A stretch of DNA of 64,000 bases from contig JAFUIN010000001.1 of NCBI GenBank assembly GCA_017468465.1, positions 14,425 to 78,424 of the forward strand, given 5' to 3'. The position numbers were made by a program, and so were the translations under genes. Positions within the stretch are counted from its first letter, which is position 1. Each line of letters begins with the position of its first letter. This document shows, piece after piece, positions 49,306-57,055 of this stretch. Source of the stretch: Clostridia bacterium (GTDB taxonomy: Bacteria > Bacillota > Clostridia > UMGS1840). The notes beneath the pieces are model-generated. The model did not search any database. It saw only the letters and a list, made by a program, of their open reading frames with translations, and had not been told where the DNA came from.

Positions 49306-51195
49306 ATGAAGAAGTTTTTGAAGAATATCGGTTTTTATGTGCTGTTATTTGCCATTTTTATGACAGTGCTTTCCATTTTGACCGTAGGAGATCAGCCGGA
49401 GATTGTGAAATATTCCGATTTTGTGGTGCAGTTTAAGGCAGGCGAAATCAAATCCATCACATACTATCAGGGCGAAAACCGTGTGGAAGCGGTGCACAAT
49501 TCCAAAGGAATGGAAAAAAATATTGAAGTTGTGATTCCCAGTCTGGACACCATGAATCAGGATTTGGGTGTGGATATTTCCAAATATATGGCAGAGGGGA
49601 AAGACACTCTGACCTATTCGGTTGTTCCGCCTCAGACAGCACCCTGGTGGTTTGCCATTATTTCACCCCTTGGGCTCATTATCATTGCTGTTTTGTTCTG
49701 GGTGTTCTTTATGCGTCAGGCAGGTGGTGGCGGCGGTGCAATGGCTTTTGGGAAAAGCAAAGCACGTATGACCGACCCCTCCAAAGCAACTGTTACCTTT
49801 GATGATGTAGCAGGTGCAGATGAAGAAAAAGAAGAACTGAAAGAAGTGGTGGATTTCTTAAAAAATCCCCAGAAATATCATGCCATCGGTGCAAGAATTC
49901 CCAAAGGACTTTTGCTGGTTGGCCCTCCGGGAACCGGTAAAACACTGCTTGCAAAGGCTTGTGCCGGCGAGGCAGGTGTTCCCTTCTTTTCCATCAGTGG
50001 TTCTGACTTTGTGGAAATGTTTGTCGGTGTGGGTGCATCCCGTGTAAGAGATTTGTTTGAAAATGCAAAAAAAGCATCCCCTTGTATCATTTTTATCGAC
50101 GAAATTGATGCTGTTGGCCGTCACAGAGGCGCAGGCTTAGGTGGCGGACACGATGAAAGAGAGCAGACTTTGAATCAGCTGTTGGTGGAAATGGATGGTT
50201 TTACCGAAAATCAGAACATCATTATTGTAGCTGCAACCAACCGCCCCGATATTTTAGATCCGGCACTGCTTCGTCCCGGTCGATTTGACCGTCAGCTTGT
50301 GGTGAATTATCCCGATGTAAAGGGCAGAGAAGAAATTCTCAAGGTTCACTCCCGTAAAAAACCGTTGGCTTCCGATGTGGATTTATCTGTTATTGCAAAA
50401 ACCACTGCCGGCTTTACCGGAGCCGATCTCGAAAATCTGTTAAACGAAAGTGCACTTCTTGCAGCTCGTGAAAATAGAACCCAGATCAATATGCAGGATG
50501 TTTCCGAGGCGATGATTAAGGTTATCGCAGGGCCGGAAAAGAAATCCAAAAAGGCGAGCGAAAAGGAAAAGAGCTTAACGGCATATCATGAAGCAGGTCA
50601 TGCTATTGTGACAAAGCTTCTGCCCAATCAGGACCCTGTGCATCAGATTTCCATTATTCCCAGAGGCAGAGCAGGCGGTTATACCTTGTCTCTCCCCAGT
50701 GAAGATAAAATGTATGCTTCCAAAGTGGGTATGATGGAAGAAATTGTGGTTCTTTTAGGTGGTCGTGTGGCAGAAAAACTGGTGCTTGACGATATTTCTA
50801 CCGGTGCTTCCAACGATATTCAGCGTGCAACCAAAATTGCCCGTGAAATGATTACCAAATATGGTATGAGTGAAAAATTAGGTCCCATTTGCTTCGGCAG
50901 TGAGCAGGATGAGGTGTTTATCGGAAAAGATTTTGGTCAGACCAGAAACTATTCCGAACAGGTTGCCTCTCAAATTGATGAAGAAATCAAAGCAGTGATT
51001 GACAGTTGTTATGAGAAATGTCAGGCACTATTGTCAGACAATATGGAGCTGCTGCATGAGCTTGCAAAACTGCTTTTGGAAAAAGAAAAGGTGGAAGGCG
51101 ACGAATTTTTGGCACTCTATAATAAGGTGAATGGCATCGTGGAAAATCCTTCCAACGAAGAAACAACCCAAGAGGCACAAGATGGCAACGAATAA
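49306..51195 (+). CDS. ftsH: ATP-dependent zinc metalloprotease FtsH
   Basis: Two TM helices, Walker [15 protein letters not shown], the SRH motif, and zinc site HEAGHA. Confidence 0.95.
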
Positions 51196-51799
51196 AAAAC
51201 CAAAATTCTATGCAGTAAAAGTGGGAGCTGCTCCCGGTATTTATGAAAGCTGGGCAGAATGCGAGCCCTTAATTAAGGGCTTTGCCGGCGCAGAATACAA
51301 AAGCTTTTCCACCCGTGAAGAAGCAGAGTATTATCTTACGGGAAAGGCTCTTGCTGTGGAGCAGTTGCCTAGTGAAGATACTCTTTTTGCCTATGTAGAC
51401 GGAAGCTATAACATAGAAACCGGTGTTTACGGATACGGTGTTGTTTTGATTTTTTCCGACGGACATATCGAGGAGATGTCCGGCGGAGATAAAAAAGAAG
51501 AAGTAGCTTCTATGCGAAATGTGGCAGGAGAGCTGAAAGGTGCTATGCTTGCCATGCAGTATGCCGTGAACCACGGATTTCGGAAAGTGAAAATTTTTCA
51601 CGATTACGAAGGCATTGCAAAATGGGCAAAGGGTGAGTGGAAAACCAATCTGGATGCTACTGCTTCCTACAGAGAATTTGCCTGGATGATTGGTGCAAAA
51701 ATTGAGCTTTCTTTTGAAAAGGTAGATGCTCACACCGGTGTATTTTATAATGAGCGGGCAGATGTCTTAGCGAAACAGGGCGCCGGAATTACGGAATAA
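51182..51799 (+). CDS. rnhA: Ribonuclease H1 with N-terminal hybrid-binding domain
   Basis: [45 protein letters not shown] is an HBD. It is followed by an RNase H core with acidic residues in YVDGSY, GELKG, HDYEG and [11 protein letters not shown] 51182 overlaps the ftsH stop. Confidence 0.8.
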
Positions 51800-51807
51800 A
51801 TTATCAC

Positions 51808-51865
51808 AAAAAATGACATTATTTGCATTGCAAGTATTGTCATTTTTGTTTTTTTGTGATAGAAT
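51808..51865 (+). repeat. Terminator-promoter cassette, copy A
   Basis: A 14-bp-arm hairpin (51813-51843) plus a T-run. The -35-like TTGTCA lies in the 3' arm (51837-51842), followed by 17 nt and an extended -10 TGATAGAAT (51857-51865). 52/58 identical, ungapped, to 57064-57121. Confidence 0.8.
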
Positions 51866-51890
51866 AGATTTAACGAAAGTTAAATCTATT
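51863..51890. promoter_or_regulatory. Perfect 12-bp inverted repeat overlapping the -10/TSS (candidate operator)
   Basis: AATAGATTTAAC-GAAA-GTTAAATCTATT, with all 12 pairs complementary. This segment is absent from cassette copy B. Confidence 0.6.
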
Positions 51891-51892
51891 TG

Positions 51893-51971
51893 GCTAAATT
51901 CGCGTTCCGCGAGCTAAATTGAGCAAGCTCAGCTAAATTGCCTACGGCAGCTAAATGTGCTTCGCACGCTA
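51893..51971 (+). repeat. Tandem array of four GCTAAAT + short hairpin modules (unclassified leader element)
   Basis: GCTAAAT occurs at 51893, 51913, 51932 and 51950, with GCTA at 51968. The spacers are distinct palindromes: TCGCG-TTC-CGCGA, TGAGC-AA-GCTCA, TGCC-TAC-GGCA and GTGC-TTC-GCAC. Confidence 0.75.
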
Positions 51972-52025
51972 CAGTATGAAACTCAGATAAAAATAAATTT
52001 TTTCGATTATAGGGAGAAGAATGAA

Positions 52026-52370
52026 ATGTATAAAAAAATAGAGCAGTTAAAAACAGTAACCAAAAAAACTAACGAAGGCAAAGATAAAATGTTCAAGACC
52101 AACCTTGCAGACTTTGACGGTTGGAATCCGAAAGCCAGACTGTTTTCTTTGGTGCAGGTACCGCCGGGGGAAGAAGTAGACTTTCATATGCACGTTGGTG
52201 AGAGTGAAACATTCTTTATTCTTTCCGGCAAGGGCATCTATACTGATAACGGAACTCAGGTTGAGGTGGCACCCGGAATGGTAACCTTCACACCCTCAGG
52301 GGAAGGCCATTCCATTAAAAATACGGGCGATGATATGCTTTCCTTTATCGCTTTGATTGTAGTTGATTAA
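52026..52370 (+). CDS. Cupin domain protein (small, single domain)
   Basis: Metal-site motifs FHMHVGESETFFILSG and PSGEGHSIKN. ATG 52026 lies 9 nt after AGGGAG. The track start (GTG 51957) lies inside the hairpin array and is rejected. Confidence 0.8.
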   Translation: MYKKIEQLKTVTKKTNEGKDKMFKTNLADFDGWNPKARLFSLVQVPPGEEVDFHMHVGESETFFILSGKGIYTDNGTQVEVAPGMVTFTPSGEGHSIKNTGDDMLSFIALIVVD

Positions 52371-52479
52371 ATGCCGACGTTTTGATTGGTGATACCCGGC
52401 TTGTCAAAAAAAGTAATCATGCTTAAAAATGTGGCAATGCCACAGTTCAAAAAAATATATAGATATGGAGGAATTCAAG

Positions 52480-53388
52480 ATGAATTCACAACAAGCAGTT
52501 CGTGCAGCGGTAGACGCTCACACTATTATTCCTGCGTTCAACATTCCCTATTTGCCGATGGTTGAACCGGTTGTTCAGGCGATTGTAGATGAGGATTCTT
52601 TGGCGATGGTTCAGGTTGCCCGTCTGGAATGGGAAAAATTTGAATCACAAAGTCCCGAAGCAGTTGCAAAAGAATATTTCAAGTTTGCAAAAGAAGGTTA
52701 CACCCTTCTTCATCTGGACCATGTTCCCGCCATTGACGAGGATATGAAAAAAGTAGATTATATGGATATTATCAAACGGGCATTGGATGTGGGCTATCAG
52801 TCTGTAATGGTTGACGGTTCCAGACTTCCCCTGGACGAAAACATTGCAACTACAGCAGAAGTTGCAGCACTGGCAAAAACCTTTGGAGCTGCAGTGGAAG
52901 CAGAATTGGGAGCAGTATCCGGTCACGAAGGAAGTGGCATCGGCTTAAGCTATGAAGAACTGTTTACCACCAAAAAAGGTTTCACAGTTCCGGAAGAAGC
53001 AAAACGGTTTGCAAAGGAATCCGGCTGTGACTGGTTGTCTGTTGCTGCCGGAAGTTTCCATGGCGCCATCGCGTCCAGCACCAAGCATCTGAAAAAGCCC
53101 AATGCAAGACTGGACATTGAACATATTAAAACATTGTCTGAAATTACCGGCAAAATGCCCTTGGTACTTCACGGCGGAAGCGGCATTGAGCAAGACTACA
53201 TCTTAAAAGCAATGGCAAACGGTATCGCAAAAATCAACGTAGGAACTGAAATCCGCCAGCCCTATGAATTTGCACTGGAAGAAAAACCGGGTGATATTGC
53301 CTATGCACAGCAGAAGGTGTATGACCGTACCCGTTGGGTAATTCATGAATTTTTGCGCACCACCGGTAACCACAGCAAATTAAAATAA
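52480..53388 (+). CDS. Class II ketose-bisphosphate aldolase family protein
   Basis: IIPAFNIPY, LHLDHV, VEAELG and LVLHGGSG motifs. ATG 52480 follows GGAGGAA. Confidence 0.8.
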   Translation: MNSQQAVRAAVDAHTIIPAFNIPYLPMVEPVVQAIVDEDSLAMVQVARLEWEKFESQSPEAVAKEYFKFAKEGYTLLHLDHVPAIDEDMKKVDYMDIIKRALDVGYQSVMVDGSRLPLDENIATTAEVAALAKTFGAAVEAELGAVSGHEGSGIGLSYEELFTTKKGFTVPEEAKRFAKESGCDWLSVAAGSFHGAIASSTKHLKKPNARLDIEHIKTLSEITGKMPLVLHGGSGIEQDYILKAMANGIAKINVGTEIRQPYEFALEEKPGDIAYAQQKVYDRTRWVIHEFLRTTGNHSKLK

Positions 53389-53428
53389 AATTGTAAGCAC
53401 ACCTCACGGTACAGTGTAAGGAGCCATT

Positions 53429-54394
53429 ATGAAAACAGTTTTTATTTTGAATCCCAAGGCAGGTAAGGGACGGCAAAAAGAAAAAACAGAAGAAATTCTG
53501 CTCAAAATAATTGCCGAAAAGGAGCTGGATGCACAAGTTTACGTCACCGCCTATCCGGGCGATGCCACAAGGTTTGTGAGAGAGCATTGTAAGACTTATG
53601 GAGCGGCCCGGTTTATTGCTTGTGGCGGAGATGGAACCTTAAGCGAAGTGCTAAACGGCGCTGTTGGGTTTTCGGGGGCAGAGGTTGGTGTGATGCCGCT
53701 GGGAAGCGGAAACGATTTTTGCAGAAATTTCCCGTGTGATACTGCATTTGGCGATGTATATTTGCAGGCAGTATCGGAAGCTGTTGCTTGTGACGCCATT
53801 CGGTATACTACCACGGTGAACGGAGAAGCTGTTACGGGGTATTGTGCAAATATGTTTAATATTGGCTTTGACTGTAAGGTGGCAGATACCACCAATCATC
53901 TGAAAGATAAAACTGTATTTGGTGGTTCTTTTGCATACTTTTTGTCCATTCTTATGAATCTGATTCAAAAGAAGGTGACGTTTCTTACGGTAACAGCAGA
54001 CGGGCTTTGTGAGCATAGCGGAGCAACGCTTTTAACCTCTGTTGCCAACGGAAAATACTGTGGCGGCGGGATTATGAGCAATCCGATGGCATCCTTACGT
54101 GATGGGAGAATCAATTTCAATATCATCAGAAACATTTCCCGTTTGCGGTTTGTTTCGTTGCTCTTTTCTTATATGAAAGGGACGCATATGTCCAAAAAAG
54201 GAATTGAGAAGTACATATTGTCCAAGCATTGCAAAACCTTGACGGTAACGCCGGAGAACGGCATTATGAGGCTTTGTATTGATGGAGAAATTGTGACTGC
54301 CGGTGAAACCACCTTTGAAATTGTGCCCAATGCGATTCAGTTTGTGTTGCCCGGGGTGAAAAACCAAAGCACGTTAATCGGAGTATGCAGATAA
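53429..54394 (+). CDS. Diacylglycerol kinase-family lipid kinase (YegS/DagK-like)
   Basis: FIACGGDGTLSEVLNG and MPLGSGNDFCRNF motifs. Confidence 0.85.
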   Translation: MKTVFILNPKAGKGRQKEKTEEILLKIIAEKELDAQVYVTAYPGDATRFVREHCKTYGAARFIACGGDGTLSEVLNGAVGFSGAEVGVMPLGSGNDFCRNFPCDTAFGDVYLQAVSEAVACDAIRYTTTVNGEAVTGYCANMFNIGFDCKVADTTNHLKDKTVFGGSFAYFLSILMNLIQKKVTFLTVTADGLCEHSGATLLTSVANGKYCGGGIMSNPMASLRDGRINFNIIRNISRLRFVSLLFSYMKGTHMSKKGIEKYILSKHCKTLTVTPENGIMRLCIDGEIVTAGETTFEIVPNAIQFVLPGVKNQSTLIGVCR

Positions 54395-54445: not shown

Positions 54446-54737
54446 TAATGAAAGGCTGTGACGAAGAGGGCAGATTCAGGCGAACCTTTGAGAGAAGTGG
54501 CGGTTGGTGCGAGCCATAGGGGACAGAGTTTGTTTGTAGCTTCTGAGCCGGGAGGAAGAAAGTTTTCAAAAGAAATGAGTAGAACCTCTCCGTGATTGCT
54601 GCGTTAAGGCATAAGAGGTTGTTAGACCTTAAGAGTGGCGATAGAATTATCGCAATTTGAGTGGTACCGCGGGTGAATAATTGCTAAAACACTCGTCTCA
54701 AAGAATTTTACCGATGCTTTGAGGCGAGATTTTTTTT
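54446..54737 (+). promoter_or_regulatory. T-box riboswitch leader (tRNA-sensing transcription attenuator)
   Basis: Stem I has a K-turn (GGC-UGU-GA.../...GA-GCC, 54454-54549), an AGAGA bulge (54491-54495) and distal loop GGUUGGUGCGA. Stem II has AGUAGAA. The T-box sequence AAUUUGAGUGGUACCGCGGGUG lies at 54654-54675. The terminator is CTCGTCTCAAAG/CTTTGAGGCGAG plus U8 (54692-54737). Confidence 0.85.
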
Positions 54738-54763
54738 GCCTCAAAAAAGGAGGATTTTTTAAT

Positions 54764-57055
54764 ATGGAAAACTCAATGGACATCAGCTTAAAAATTAAGG
54801 AGATGGCATGGCGTATTCGCGAGCTTCGGGAAATTGAAGGCTTTACCCCCGAAGATATGGCGGAAAAGACAGGTGTATCGTTGGAAGACTATCGGAAAAT
54901 GGAAAATGGAGAAGCAGACCTGAACTTTGCTTTTATTTACCGTTGTGCAGAAGTGTTCCGGGTAAACGTTACCGATATTATCGAAGGTACCAGCCCCAAT
55001 CTTCGCTCTTACACAGTGACTCGTGCAGGAGCTGGTCAGCAGATTGCAAAGGCTCATGGCATGGTATATTACAATATGGCACATGCTTTCCGTAACAGAA
55101 TCGCAGAGCCCTTGTATGTTGTAAGCACCTATGATGAAGCAGCACAAAATAAAGACATTGAACTGACCACTCACGAAGGTCAGGAATGTGATATTGTGAT
55201 TGAAGGCAATCTGATGGTGCAAATCGGGGAACATAAAGAAGTGCTTGGCCCCGGCGACAGCATTTACTATAACAGTAGCACTCCCCACGGTATGATTGCT
55301 GTAAATGGAAAAGACTGTAAATTCTACGCGTTTGTGCTTCGTGCCGATGCCGAAGTTGCTGAAAAAGTGGCAGAAGTGGTTCCTACAGAGCAGATTATCG
55401 GCTCCATTCATCGGGATACCAAAGACAGAATTTATCATAAATTTATCGACGTGGTGGAAGACGAACAGGGAACACCTACCTCTATCACCTTCAAAAATAC
55501 AGAAAAGTTCAATTTTGCATTCGATTTGGTGGATGAGCTGTCCAGAAAAGAGCCGGACAAGCTTTGTATGCTCCACATTTCCAAAAACAAAACCGAACGT
55601 CGCTTCACCTTTACCGATATGCGTAAAAAATCCAGCCAGTGTGCTAACTATTTTGCATCCTTGGGGATTAAAAAGGGCGACCGCGTTATGCTCATTTTAA
55701 GACGTCACTATCAGTTCTGGATTGCTATGCTGGGGCTGAATAAGCTGGGTGCTGTTGCCATTCCGGCGGTTGACCAGCTGCACGAGCATGATTTGGAATA
55801 TCGTTTCCAGTCTGCAGGGGTTAGTGCAATTGTTTGTACTGCAGAAGGCGAAGTTTCAAACTATGTTGATATGGCGGCGAAAAATTGCCCCACATTGCAG
55901 CATAAAATGCTGGTTGGCGGCAAAAAAGAGGGCTGGAGAAGCTTTAACGAAGAATATAAACGCTTCAGCACACATTTTGAACGTACCGAAGATTCTCCCT
56001 GCGGTGATGATACCATGCTGATGTATTTCACCTCCGGAACCTCCGGCTATCCGAAAATTGCTACCCATAACTATAAATATCCTTTGGGTCATTTTCATAC
56101 TGCTAAATATTGGCACAATGTAGACCCTGACGGATTGCACTTTACCATTTCCGATACCGGTTGGGCAAAGGCAATGTGGGGCAAATTATACGGTCAGTGG
56201 CTGTGCGAAGCGGCAACCTTTGTATACGATTTTGACCGATTTGATGCAGCAGAAATTCTGCCCATGTTCCAGAAGCATCACATTACCACCTTCTGTGCAC
56301 CGCCTACTATGTTGCGCATGATGATAAAACAGGACATTTCCAAATACGACTTTTCTTCTGTTCGTCATATGACTACCGCTGGAGAAGCACTGAATCCGGA
56401 AGTGTACCGTCAATTTGAAAAAGCAACTGGCTTACAGATTAAAGAAGGTTTCGGTCAGACCGAAAGCACCATGATTATCGGGAACCTGGTTGGTAAGCCT
56501 CATAAAATCGGTGCAATGGGAAAACCGGCACCGATTTACAAGGTAGAGCTTCATAATGCAGACGGTGAACAGGTAAAAACCAGTGAATCCGGCGAAATTG
56601 TTATCAATGTTAAAGACGGCGCACCTTGCGGTCTCTTTACCGGATATTACGGTGACGAAGAAAAAACCAAAGAGGTATGGCACGATGGCTATTATCACAC
56701 CGGTGACGTTGCCTGGTGCGATGAAGACGGATATTATTGGTATGTTGGCCGTGTGGACAATGTTATTAAATCTTCCGGATACAGAATCGGACCCTTTGAA
56801 ATTGAAAGCGTTATTATGGAGCTTCCATATGTTTTGGAATGCGGTGTTTCTGCTGTTCCCGATGAAGTAAGAGGGCAGATTGTAAAAGCCAGCATCGTAT
56901 TGGTTAACGGCACGGAAGGCACAGATGAGCTGAAAAAAGAAATCCAGAATTATGTTAAGGAAAAAACAGCTCCCTATAAGTACCCCAGAATTGTTGAATT
57001 CAAGGAATCGTTGCCCAAAACCGTAAGCGGAAAAATTCAGAGAAACAAATTGTAA
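54764..57055 (+). CDS. Fusion protein: XRE-type HTH + cupin + AMP-forming acyl-CoA synthetase (medium/short-chain ACS-like)
   Basis: N-terminal HTH (IRELREIEGFTPEDMAEKTGVSLEDYRKMENG), cupin (GDSIYYNSSTPHGM), then adenylation motifs YFTSGTSGYPK, EGFGQTES, YYHTGD, GRVDNVIKSSGYRIGPFEIE and PKTVSGKIQR. ATG 54764 lies 9 nt after AAAGGAGGA. Confidence 0.85.
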   Translation: MENSMDISLKIKEMAWRIRELREIEGFTPEDMAEKTGVSLEDYRKMENGEADLNFAFIYRCAEVFRVNVTDIIEGTSPNLRSYTVTRAGAGQQIAKAHGMVYYNMAHAFRNRIAEPLYVVSTYDEAAQNKDIELTTHEGQECDIVIEGNLMVQIGEHKEVLGPGDSIYYNSSTPHGMIAVNGKDCKFYAFVLRADAEVAEKVAEVVPTEQIIGSIHRDTKDRIYHKFIDVVEDEQGTPTSITFKNTEKFNFAFDLVDELSRKEPDKLCMLHISKNKTERRFTFTDMRKKSSQCANYFASLGIKKGDRVMLILRRHYQFWIAMLGLNKLGAVAIPAVDQLHEHDLEYRFQSAGVSAIVCTAEGEVSNYVDMAAKNCPTLQHKMLVGGKKEGWRSFNEEYKRFSTHFERTEDSPCGDDTMLMYFTSGTSGYPKIATHNYKYPLGHFHTAKYWHNVDPDGLHFTISDTGWAKAMWGKLYGQWLCEAATFVYDFDRFDAAEILPMFQKHHITTFCAPPTMLRMMIKQDISKYDFSSVRHMTTAGEALNPEVYRQFEKATGLQIKEGFGQTESTMIIGNLVGKPHKIGAMGKPAPIYKVELHNADGEQVKTSESGEIVINVKDGAPCGLFTGYYGDEEKTKEVWHDGYYHTGDVAWCDEDGYYWYVGRVDNVIKSSGYRIGPFEIESVIMELPYVLECGVSAVPDEVRGQIVKASIVLVNGTEGTDELKKEIQNYVKEKTAPYKYPRIVEFKESLPKTVSGKIQRNKL

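Follow-up and report, generated by a model that had tools for sequence, protein, structure and literature searches.

A probable truncated copy of a dispersed, modular palindromic repeat of Clostridia in the leader of a cupin operon

Introduction

The DNA considered here (the window) is a stretch of 64,000 nucleotides from a Clostridia bacterium (GTDB lineage Bacteria; Bacillota; Clostridia; UMGS1840), taken from GenBank assembly GCA_017468465.1, contig JAFUIN010000001.1, positions 14,425 to 78,424 of the forward strand. At 51893-51971, between the promoter and the ribosome-binding site (RBS) of an operon that begins with a small cupin gene and continues with an aldolase and a kinase gene, it carries four copies of the heptamer GCTAAAT and a partial fifth, separated by short palindromes that differ from one another. 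A first-pass annotation, made from the letters alone, had read this array as a leader device of the operon: a riboregulator, an antiterminator platform or an operator array. We compared it with similar arrays in other genomes, and the window sequence 51857-51971 now appears to belong, as a truncated copy, to a modular palindromic repeat dispersed among Clostridia/Oscillospirales and not to be a regulator of the cupin operon (a reading to which we give a probability of roughly 0.8).

Results

The array in the cupin leader

The features of the locus are collected in Table 1. The four heptamers and the truncated fifth follow one another at intervals of 20, 19, 18 and 18 nt, and a related GTTAAAT stands ahead of them at 51879-51885; the first-pass annotation had placed all of these correctly. 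It had also described the four intervals as different short palindromes, and so they are: TCGCGTTCCGCGA, TGAGCAAGCTCA, TGCCTACGGCA and GTGCTTCGCAC each form a stem of 4-5 bp with a loop of 2-4 nt. The heptamer is not in excess across the window as a whole (8 copies in 64 kb vs. 12.1 +/- 3.5 expected), so that the regularly spaced cluster of four in 64 nt is a local feature and not a product of composition. Tandem Repeats Finder called no repeat in the window array, because the spacers are unrelated in sequence. A decaying tandem duplication, which the first-pass annotation had already discounted, is excluded, since each spacer corresponds to its own slot in other genomes while having no relation to the other three.

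Table 1. Features of the cupin locus (positions in the window)
Feature	Position	Strand	Remark
Terminator-like hairpin of the upstream RNase H1-type gene, ATGACA...TGTCAT + T-run	51813-51856	+	Outside the repeat unit; from sequence
Predicted sigma-70-type promoter: TTGTCA, 17 nt, TAGAAT; TG at 51857-51858 (extended -10)	51837-51865	+	
H0, 12-13 bp palindrome GAATAGATTTAAC-GAAA-GTTAAATCTATT(T)	51862-51891	strand-neutral	Overlaps the -10 box and the expected transcription start
Heptamer 1, GCTAAAT	51893-51899	+	From sequence
Hairpin H1, TCGCG-TTC-CGCGA	51900-51912	+	Slot consensus TCGC..GCGA in 47 full elements
Heptamer 2, GCTAAAT	51913-51919	+	From sequence
Hairpin H2, TGAGC-AA-GCTCA	51920-51931	+	Variant TGAACAAGTTCA in other copies is a double compensatory change
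Heptamer 3, GCTAAAT	51932-51938	+	From sequence
Hairpin H3, TGCC-TAC-GGCA	51939-51949	+	Bottom strand reads CC-GTA-GG
Heptamer 4, GCTAAAT	51950-51956	+	From sequence
Hairpin H4, GTGC-TTC-GCAC	51957-51967	+	Bottom strand includes GCGAAGC, a canonical DNA mini-hairpin (PMC13037366)
Fifth repeat, truncated GCTA (breakpoint)	51968-51971	+	Full elements continue here with GCT..GCGAATTTA and an inverted right arm
Locus-specific leader; RBS GGGAG at 52012-52016	51972-52025	+	Not repeat family; model match ends at 51976
Cupin 52026-52370; class-II aldolase family 52429-53388; diacylglycerol kinase (DAGK)/YegS-type kinase 53429-54394	52026-54394	+	

A truncated member of a dispersed family

In other genomes arrays of this kind form the left arm of a longer, two-armed element (loci in those genomes carry L numbers here). 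A covariance model built from 46 left arms of other genomes (model R1) matched the window at 51891-51976 along its entire length of 88 positions, with 85.3 bits (E = 6e-16), its sole match in the 64 kb. The left arm at L054, in another metagenome-assembled genome (MAG), is 97% identical to the window array; there it belongs to a full element downstream of a stable-RNA gene ending in CCA and that gene's terminator. The window array also has the properties by which the family is recognized, namely at least three GCTAAAT at a period of 18-21 nt, palindromic spacers that are not identical, slot-specific hairpins H1-H4, and a longer hairpin (H0) before the first heptamer. Neither the center GCGAATTTA nor an inverted right arm is present in the window, no center motif with two or fewer meaningful mismatches lies nearby, and the sequence leaves the family consensus right after the GCTA that ends at 51971 to pass into the cupin leader. 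The repeating modules of the first-pass annotation are thus real, but they make up only half of the unit, the complete element having a second, inverted arm.

Truncated halves like the window copy occur at L024, L025, L100 and among L258-L263. A head composed of TGnTAGAAT and a 13-bp palindrome precedes one module at L258, L259 and L263, three at L024 and four in the window, and the same head precedes a full element at L261, L262, L063 and L272, with unrelated genes following in each case. Judged from these comparisons, the promoter/H0 head is itself a repeated and apparently portable unit.

Strains with an identical cupin differ in the array: module 3 is missing at L122, H0 and H1 are different ones at L130, and the upstream modules are different at L126. 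Cupin orthologs (five distinct ones, at 72-85% identity) are found at seven other loci, all of which lie in unrelated neighborhoods and are free of arrays. The first-pass annotation had expected orthologous loci to keep the array if it served the operon; at these seven it is absent, and arrays stand instead at dozens of unrelated loci, so that the reading as an operon leader device does not hold. Cupin synteny, which would have supplied orthologous leaders for comparison, failed in the same way, since in every MAG the cupin lies in a different neighborhood without an array. By comparison with the other copies, the window feature is a partial copy within a dispersed, mosaic family of repeats.

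The cupin gene (114 aa) itself seems to be relocated often, its neighbors at L131-L137 being wholly different from one MAG to the next.

Architecture of the complete element

Sixty full copies were obtained and oriented by their asymmetric center. The layout begins with H0, a long hairpin, and continues with four units of GCTAAAT plus hairpin, the center (GCT..GCGAATTTA), and three to four units of ATTTAGC plus hairpin, ATTTAGC being the reverse complement of GCTAAAT and the right arm therefore an inverted one. Full elements are ~166-171 nt long (median 166 nt), most commonly with 4 + 4 modules. In an alignment of 30 elements from different species, the heptamers and the A and T that flank them are invariant.

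Relative to shuffled controls the full element folds with z = -7.2 as RNA and -9.4 as DNA, and in the predicted folds the left and right heptamers pair while the hairpins branch off. Covariation of left with right heptamers was uninformative as a test of this pairing: the heptamers never vary, and comparison can therefore neither prove nor disprove that the arms pair. The left arm offers no compensating partner to ATTTCGC, a variant often seen in the right arm, and this may weigh mildly against strict arm pairing at that position. Pairing between left and right hairpins is present at L077 (GAAC/GTTC), is not kept at L063, and is not conserved.

Some H0 hairpins are common to different loci. 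The same terminator-like H0, GACAGATTTCGACAAAGAAATCTGTC, is found at L054, L092 and L093 (two loci in one MAG, the third in another species), and a second one, GACATTATTCGAWAAAGAATAATGTC, is common to L068 and L098; this implies that the “terminator” either travels with the element or is homogenized between copies. A second, unrelated repeat family adjoins elements at L054, L084 and L092, just 3′ of the right arm (e.g., L092:6010-6200); it reads ...CCAAAAATCGACA..TGTCGATTTTACTTATTACCTATTC..TTCACTATTCC.TAAAAGGACTTGTCGATTTTTGGAAAGTAATAAGTAATAG.GAATAAGGAAGAAGT.AAGG, with long inverted repeats, and the intergenic regions that hold it look like nests of several repeat families. The motif (T)TGCATCTAWW..(T)T recurs after the right arm at L021, L079, L084, L092, L093 and L098; it also stands on both sides of an array-less cupin ortholog (L134/L135) and is absent from the window.

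Hairpin covariation and strand preference

The 280 left-arm modules contain 170 distinct spacers, in which 94% of the end-to-end positions are Watson-Crick pairs. Slot by slot the Watson-Crick fraction is 0.91-0.97, compared with 0.42-0.63 when the 3′ halves are swapped between copies; the exceptions are H1, which barely varies (swap control 0.83), and h2, which has a conserved purine-rich internal loop and reaches 0.74. The slots (H1-H4 on the left, h1-h3 on the right) keep a recognizable identity across species, and double substitutions are seen within them (TGAGCAAGCTCA vs. TGAACAAGTTCA; TCGCC..GGCGA vs. TCGGC..GCCGA); RNAalifold found double changes at 18 of 45 pairs. Slot identity combined with compensatory change indicates that the hairpins have been selected as structures in a single-stranded nucleic acid, and the alignments argue strongly that they evolve under this structural selection by compensatory changes. 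The first-pass annotation had suspected as much from the window alone (a fixed linear motif with stems that change and stay paired), and the homologous copies bear it out.

Loops read in the GCTAAAT direction are biased to C-T(N)(N)C-G, with TTC (53), TGC (17), TAC (14) and TCC (4) accounting for 88 of 114 triloops; tetraloops in this direction are mostly TNNC. Read on the ATTTAGC strand, they are C-GNA-G and C-GNNA-G loops, and GCGNAGC and GCGNNAGC, with loops of just these two kinds, are DNA mini-hairpins of extraordinary stability (PMC13037366). Many right-arm hairpins contain GCGAAGC exactly, as does H4 of the window on its bottom strand. At non-canonical positions, the top strand of the right arms has 70 G.A and 19 G.T vs. 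2 C.T and 3 A.C, and the left arms are the mirror image; the G.U vs. A.C bias, as a test for RNA, was uninformative in the left arms (10 vs. 17). By these counts the ATTTAGC-reading strand appears to be the better folder in each arm. In the window copy this strand is antisense to the cupin mRNA, which suggests that the hairpins were not shaped for that message. The loop statistics also give a hint, no more, that single-stranded DNA may be the relevant form.

Promoter, leader and neighboring genes

The putative promoter matches 10 of 12 consensus positions and has the upstream TG, in agreement with the extended -10 promoter of the first-pass annotation (51857-51865). TGnTAGAAT forms the left edge of the conserved promoter-type unit, the sequence 5′ of TG being unconserved, and TGnTA(G/T)AAT stands directly before H0 in the window copy and at L024, L063, L258, L259, L261, L262, L272 and L264, with TGTTAGAAT as its counterpart at L017 and TGGTATAAT at L038. 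The window-type H0 palindrome also precedes arrays at nine other loci; in other copies its position is taken by a terminator-like hairpin. The first-pass annotation had seen an inverted repeat adjacent to the array, which does belong to the same unit, but it is longer than was noted and reaches into the -10 box. The RNase H1-type gene upstream ends at 51799; the 3′ stem of its terminator-like hairpin overlaps the -35 box, and the stretch that holds this hairpin is not conserved in the other promoter-type copies.

The element's promoter would now drive the cupin operon, with transcription predicted to start at ~51872-51874, which would leave most of the left half of H0 outside the RNA. The left arm would then be the first ~100 nt of the cupin 5′ untranslated region, to judge from the promoter consensus. 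As RNA the leader has an unexceptional folding energy (z = -0.73); as DNA the two strands of the half-array both fold moderately and cannot be distinguished (z = -2.6 and -3.1). The evidence for structure thus comes from comparison with other copies and not from the thermodynamics of the leader. No terminator-like sites were called in 51650-52150, and the array hairpins end in AGCTAAAT, not in a T-run. An attenuator or an array of intrinsic terminators was excluded, since no terminator/antiterminator alternative structure exists and no T-run follows the hairpins.

Two neighboring genes deserve mention. At the end of the cluster, a 778-aa open reading frame (ORF) at 54719-57055 (plus strand) fuses an XRE-type helix-turn-helix (HTH), a cupin domain and an AMP-binding (adenylate-forming) enzyme, an unusual architecture. 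On the other side, the RNase H1-type ORF (51131-51799, counted from its first ATG) overlaps the end of ftsH (49306-51195) by 65 nt; in related contigs this gene is called from a later start, giving 205 aa, and the overlap is probably a matter of start-codon choice.

Distribution and genomic context

A scan of one genome per species, with three perfect heptamers spaced 10-14 nt apart as the query, gave at least 120 matches. About 72 of the 120 matches listed are arrays with palindromic, non-identical spacers, and the rest are ordinary tandem repeats in other phyla. The hosts of the true loci listed are all MAGs labelled Clostridia, Eubacteriales, Oscillospiraceae, Ruminococcus, Acutalibacteraceae or similar, and the labelled hosts of the element-bearing MAGs are mostly ruminants. 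Several copies may occur in one MAG: RUG14256 has at least five on separate contigs, and RGIG8738 has five arrays on a single 186-kb contig. Many copies lie at contig ends, as is expected of repeats that break assemblies. On viral contigs, ~3 true elements (one of them beside a tRNA) were found among the 120 pattern matches listed, and the idea of a phage-borne family was rejected since phage contigs hardly carry elements.

Some elements lie directly behind a terminator-like H0 after tRNA genes (for Met, Val, Leu, Pro and Cys), after tmRNA or after an rRNA operon; others stand 3′ of protein genes, in 5′ leaders, or between genes that converge. The upstream gene is co-oriented with the element in 31 cases vs. 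12, and the downstream gene in 29 vs. 8, a bias that fits either transcription or replication direction. Clustering of the neighboring genes (72 loci, within 3 kb of the arrays) revealed no transposase and no recurrent enzyme gene; the sole sizeable recurrent cluster adjoining elements was PF05635. Copies within one genome are usually ~0.75-0.88 alike, compared with 0.90-0.99 to the best copy in another species; across copies, within-genome likeness is typically 0.6-0.9, and identical pairs are rare.

The first-pass annotation knew of no RNA class with this architecture, and the searches agree. An Rfam 15 scan at gathering thresholds of 18 full-element loci gave nothing that overlaps the elements, and an E-value scan of the window leader had RefA1 as its best match, on the minus strand, with 22.8 bits vs. 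a gathering score of 94. No description of the element was found in the searchable literature on the heptamer, on MITEs (miniature inverted-repeat transposable elements) or repetitive extragenic palindromic (REP) sequences in Ruminococcus or Clostridia, or on PF05635.

The same heptamer occurs in other arrays, in Planctomycetota and in one MAG of the candidate phyla radiation (L002, L029, L042, L106 and L119). There GCTAAAT + (GGT)ATTCACGGCGG forms identical units beside a CCGCCGTG-TATT-CACGGCGG hairpin, in both orientations within a contig; these arrays differ from the Clostridia element in taxon and in spacer logic.

Association with an Avd-like gene

In 10 loci and at least six contexts, the full element ends 24-44 nt before the ATG of a four-helix-bundle gene of PF05635/TIGR02436, the Avd-like “23S rRNA intervening sequence (IVS) protein” family; the flanks of these loci include tmRNA, tRNA-Met, tRNA-Val, glutamine synthetase, EF-G and promoter-type heads. 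L090 is arranged likewise, except that the edge of the locus cuts the gene, and at L084 the element lies ~206 nt upstream of the gene with another repeat between them. Every gene of this PF05635 subfamily that was examined has an upstream element, including both homologs picked blind from the protein search, and the promoter-type subtype in its complete form runs straight into the PF05635 gene. No PF05635 gene is found near ~50 of the 60 full copies, or anywhere in the 64-kb window.

A search with the PF05635 protein of L077 gave at least 8000 database matches; the 120 listed are ~88-99% identical and lie mostly on contigs <2 kb, suggesting that metagenome assemblies commonly break at the gene and its leader element. 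The closest solved homologs, 2RLD and 2GSC, are five-chain entries, and the arms of the element hold four full repeats and a partial one. PF05635 resembles Avd, the accessory protein of diversity-generating retroelements (PMC10053308). PADLOC returned no match. A tandem duplication is visible at L048 (5500-6400, minus strand), where an element, the first ~27 PF05635 codons and a T-run are followed by a second element and the complete PF05635 gene.

Discussion

The window thus has a promoter/H0 head and left arm joined to the cupin leader, and we propose that this portable unit supplies the promoter of the operon. Any effect on the operon would probably be generic (5′ hairpins affecting mRNA stability, or a factor acting on the whole family) and not specific to a ligand or pathway. 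The family as a whole would behave like REP/BIME (bacterial interspersed mosaic element) or BOX-type interspersed repeats, with mosaic copies in which H0, the arms and the number of modules reassort through recombination or transposition.

Several observations weigh against this reading or limit it. No target-site duplication was seen on inspection of the flanks and no recurrent transposase stands next to the elements at the 72 loci, so that mobility is read from distribution and mosaicism only. Selfish spread explains the divergence of copies within a genome no better than old, conserved and possibly functional paralogs would, and the combination of invariant heptamers with covarying hairpins points to a real molecular function. 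The copy numbers and taxonomic range are lower bounds, given that the scan required perfect heptamers and listed no more than 120 matches, and both the position of the transcription start and the inclusion of the array in the mRNA are read from the promoter consensus.

The closest parallels are among known interspersed repeats. The REP, BIME and REPIN (REP doublet forming hairpin) sequences of Proteobacteria, with their REP-associated tyrosine transposase (RAYT) systems (PMC3116915, PMC3337134), are likewise dispersed, short intergenic palindromes, clustered with alternating linkers in BIMEs and set as inverted pairs in REPINs; they too are often found 3′ of genes, persist for long with conserved structure, and are thought to act as single-stranded DNA hairpins. 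They differ in that the REP palindrome with its 5′ GTAG is conserved, whereas here a 7-nt linker is invariant and the spacers are manifold, with stems of only 4-5 bp, in a Clostridia host and without a RAYT gene in the 8-kb loci examined. As for MITEs, inverted arms are present, but flanks without a visible duplication and within-genome copies that are not near-identical do not fit that class. The mini-hairpin DNA motif that most ATTTAGC-strand loops resemble is a structural motif rather than an element family, its described natural examples being single sites in single-stranded DNA replication origins and in promoters rather than arrays (PMC13037366).

In Firmicutes, modular intergenic repeats are known from the pneumococcus, whose BOX elements (boxA-boxB(n)-boxC) have a variable number of internal modules and complementary outer parts that fold back; they lie in 5′ and 3′ untranslated regions, can alter the expression of neighboring genes, and are not known to have a transposase of their own. 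The present element is not known to resemble BOX in sequence; the conserved modules of BOX are 45-59 nt long in place of 7-nt linkers with covarying mini-hairpins, and BOX is not known to have an associated protein gene. On the sequence evidence we would class the element among the interspersed palindromic repeats.

Of the alternatives, the one that survives best, though we consider it unlikely, is a REPIN- or MITE-like non-autonomous mobile element whose single-stranded DNA hairpins (on the lagging-strand template, for example) are read by a transposase encoded elsewhere, which would make the window copy a dead half-element. Two inverted arms, intergenic dispersal, varying module number and broken assemblies are all in keeping with it, as are the loop types and the G.A and G.T mismatches on the ATTTAGC strand, the better folding of the full element as DNA than as RNA, and the orientation of most full copies, which is that of their flanking genes and, in Firmicutes, also that of replication. 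Against it, the copies within a genome are divergent and not near-identical, no transposase (Y1/HUH or other) recurs beside the elements, inspection showed no target duplication, and it is the linker and not the palindrome that is conserved, the opposite of REPs.

Somewhat more doubtful is the idea that the arrays are binding platforms for the PF05635 Avd-like protein, with the full element as an autoregulated leader and the gene-less copies as a regulon, decoys or non-autonomous passengers. Element and gene might together form a previously unrecognized protein-nucleic acid system, in which a predicted pentamer reads the five-fold heptamer array between the mini-hairpins, or a ladder of four-way junctions formed from the paired arms; this, too, we hold to be a speculative proposal. 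Equally tentative is its corollary, that promoter, array and gene make up an autonomous form and that the gene-less arrays, including the one in the cupin operon, are non-autonomous copies or a regulon. The tight linkage of element and gene in varied contexts, the invariance of the heptamers, the great size of the protein family, the five-chain homologs and the likeness to Avd speak for this link; against it, most full copies have no such gene nearby, and the window lacks one. Nucleic-acid binding is only putative in this subfamily, the five-fold match may be numerology, and PADLOC gave no match. In Leptospira, 23S rRNA intervening sequences carry a PF05635 ORF inside inverted repeats within the rRNA gene. 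The parallel lies in a PF05635 ORF coupled to a long fold-back inverted-repeat structure at stable-RNA loci, with family kinship to Avd (PMC10053308); it differs in that here the two-armed element lies upstream of the ORF and outside the rRNA, and most elements have no ORF.

A double-stranded DNA array, in which a protein binds H0, spreads cooperatively over the GCTAAAT copies and represses the promoter (a nucleoid-associated protein, or the downstream HTH-cupin-AMP-binding protein), is improbable. H0 does overlap the -10 box and transcription start as an operator would, with a half-site (GTTAAAT) similar to the heptamer, which itself is found in either orientation across the arms, and the repeats recur every 18-21 bp, about two helical turns; yet recognition of the duplex leaves the palindromic upkeep of variable spacers unexplained, H0 in most copies is an unrelated terminator-like hairpin without such a half-site, and the HTH fusion gene has no link to elements elsewhere. 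The likeness of single hairpins to parS half-sites and LexA boxes was judged coincidental, being confined to some subtypes, with the spacing or the core wrong.

Least probable by far is a cis-acting RNA of the cupin leader (a multivalent RNA-binding platform, boxA/boxB-like repeats or an operon-specific riboregulator), for although the array lies between a good promoter and an RBS, has covarying hairpins and belongs to no known family, orthologous cupin loci lack it, the same array follows stable-RNA terminators and lies between convergent genes, strains with the identical cupin have three or four or different modules, and its RNA folding is ordinary, with an antisense loop bias and no terminator/antiterminator alternative. 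The lambda nut site (boxA + boxB) and the TRAP and CsrA target arrays share with the window array a conserved linear motif that alternates with a hairpin or spacer and is repeated; they differ in being locus-specific, with defined partner proteins and conserved hairpin loops, where the window has the dispersed half of a palindromic unit, and Rfam models match neither the window leader nor the elements at the 18 full-element loci.

For the locus itself, the reading as a truncated repeat copy is deflationary: the cupin-aldolase-kinase operon is probably not controlled by a new riboswitch-like leader, and the promoter that drives it appears to be one that moves along with a repeat element. This has a practical side, in that an element that breaks metagenome assemblies and moves promoters between genes matters for the annotation and interpretation of MAGs. 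The link to Avd-like proteins is tight; if the proposed partnership were true, the standalone “23S rRNA IVS proteins,” a very large family, would gain their first nucleic-acid partner. The logic of the element is itself unusual, for its linkers never vary and its hairpins covary, where REP elements do the opposite, and the loop statistics point to mini-hairpins of the DNA type. Taken as a family, it appears to be a widespread and structurally constrained repeat of ~170 nt in the uncultured Oscillospirales of the rumen and gut, unmatched in Rfam and undescribed in the searchable literature.

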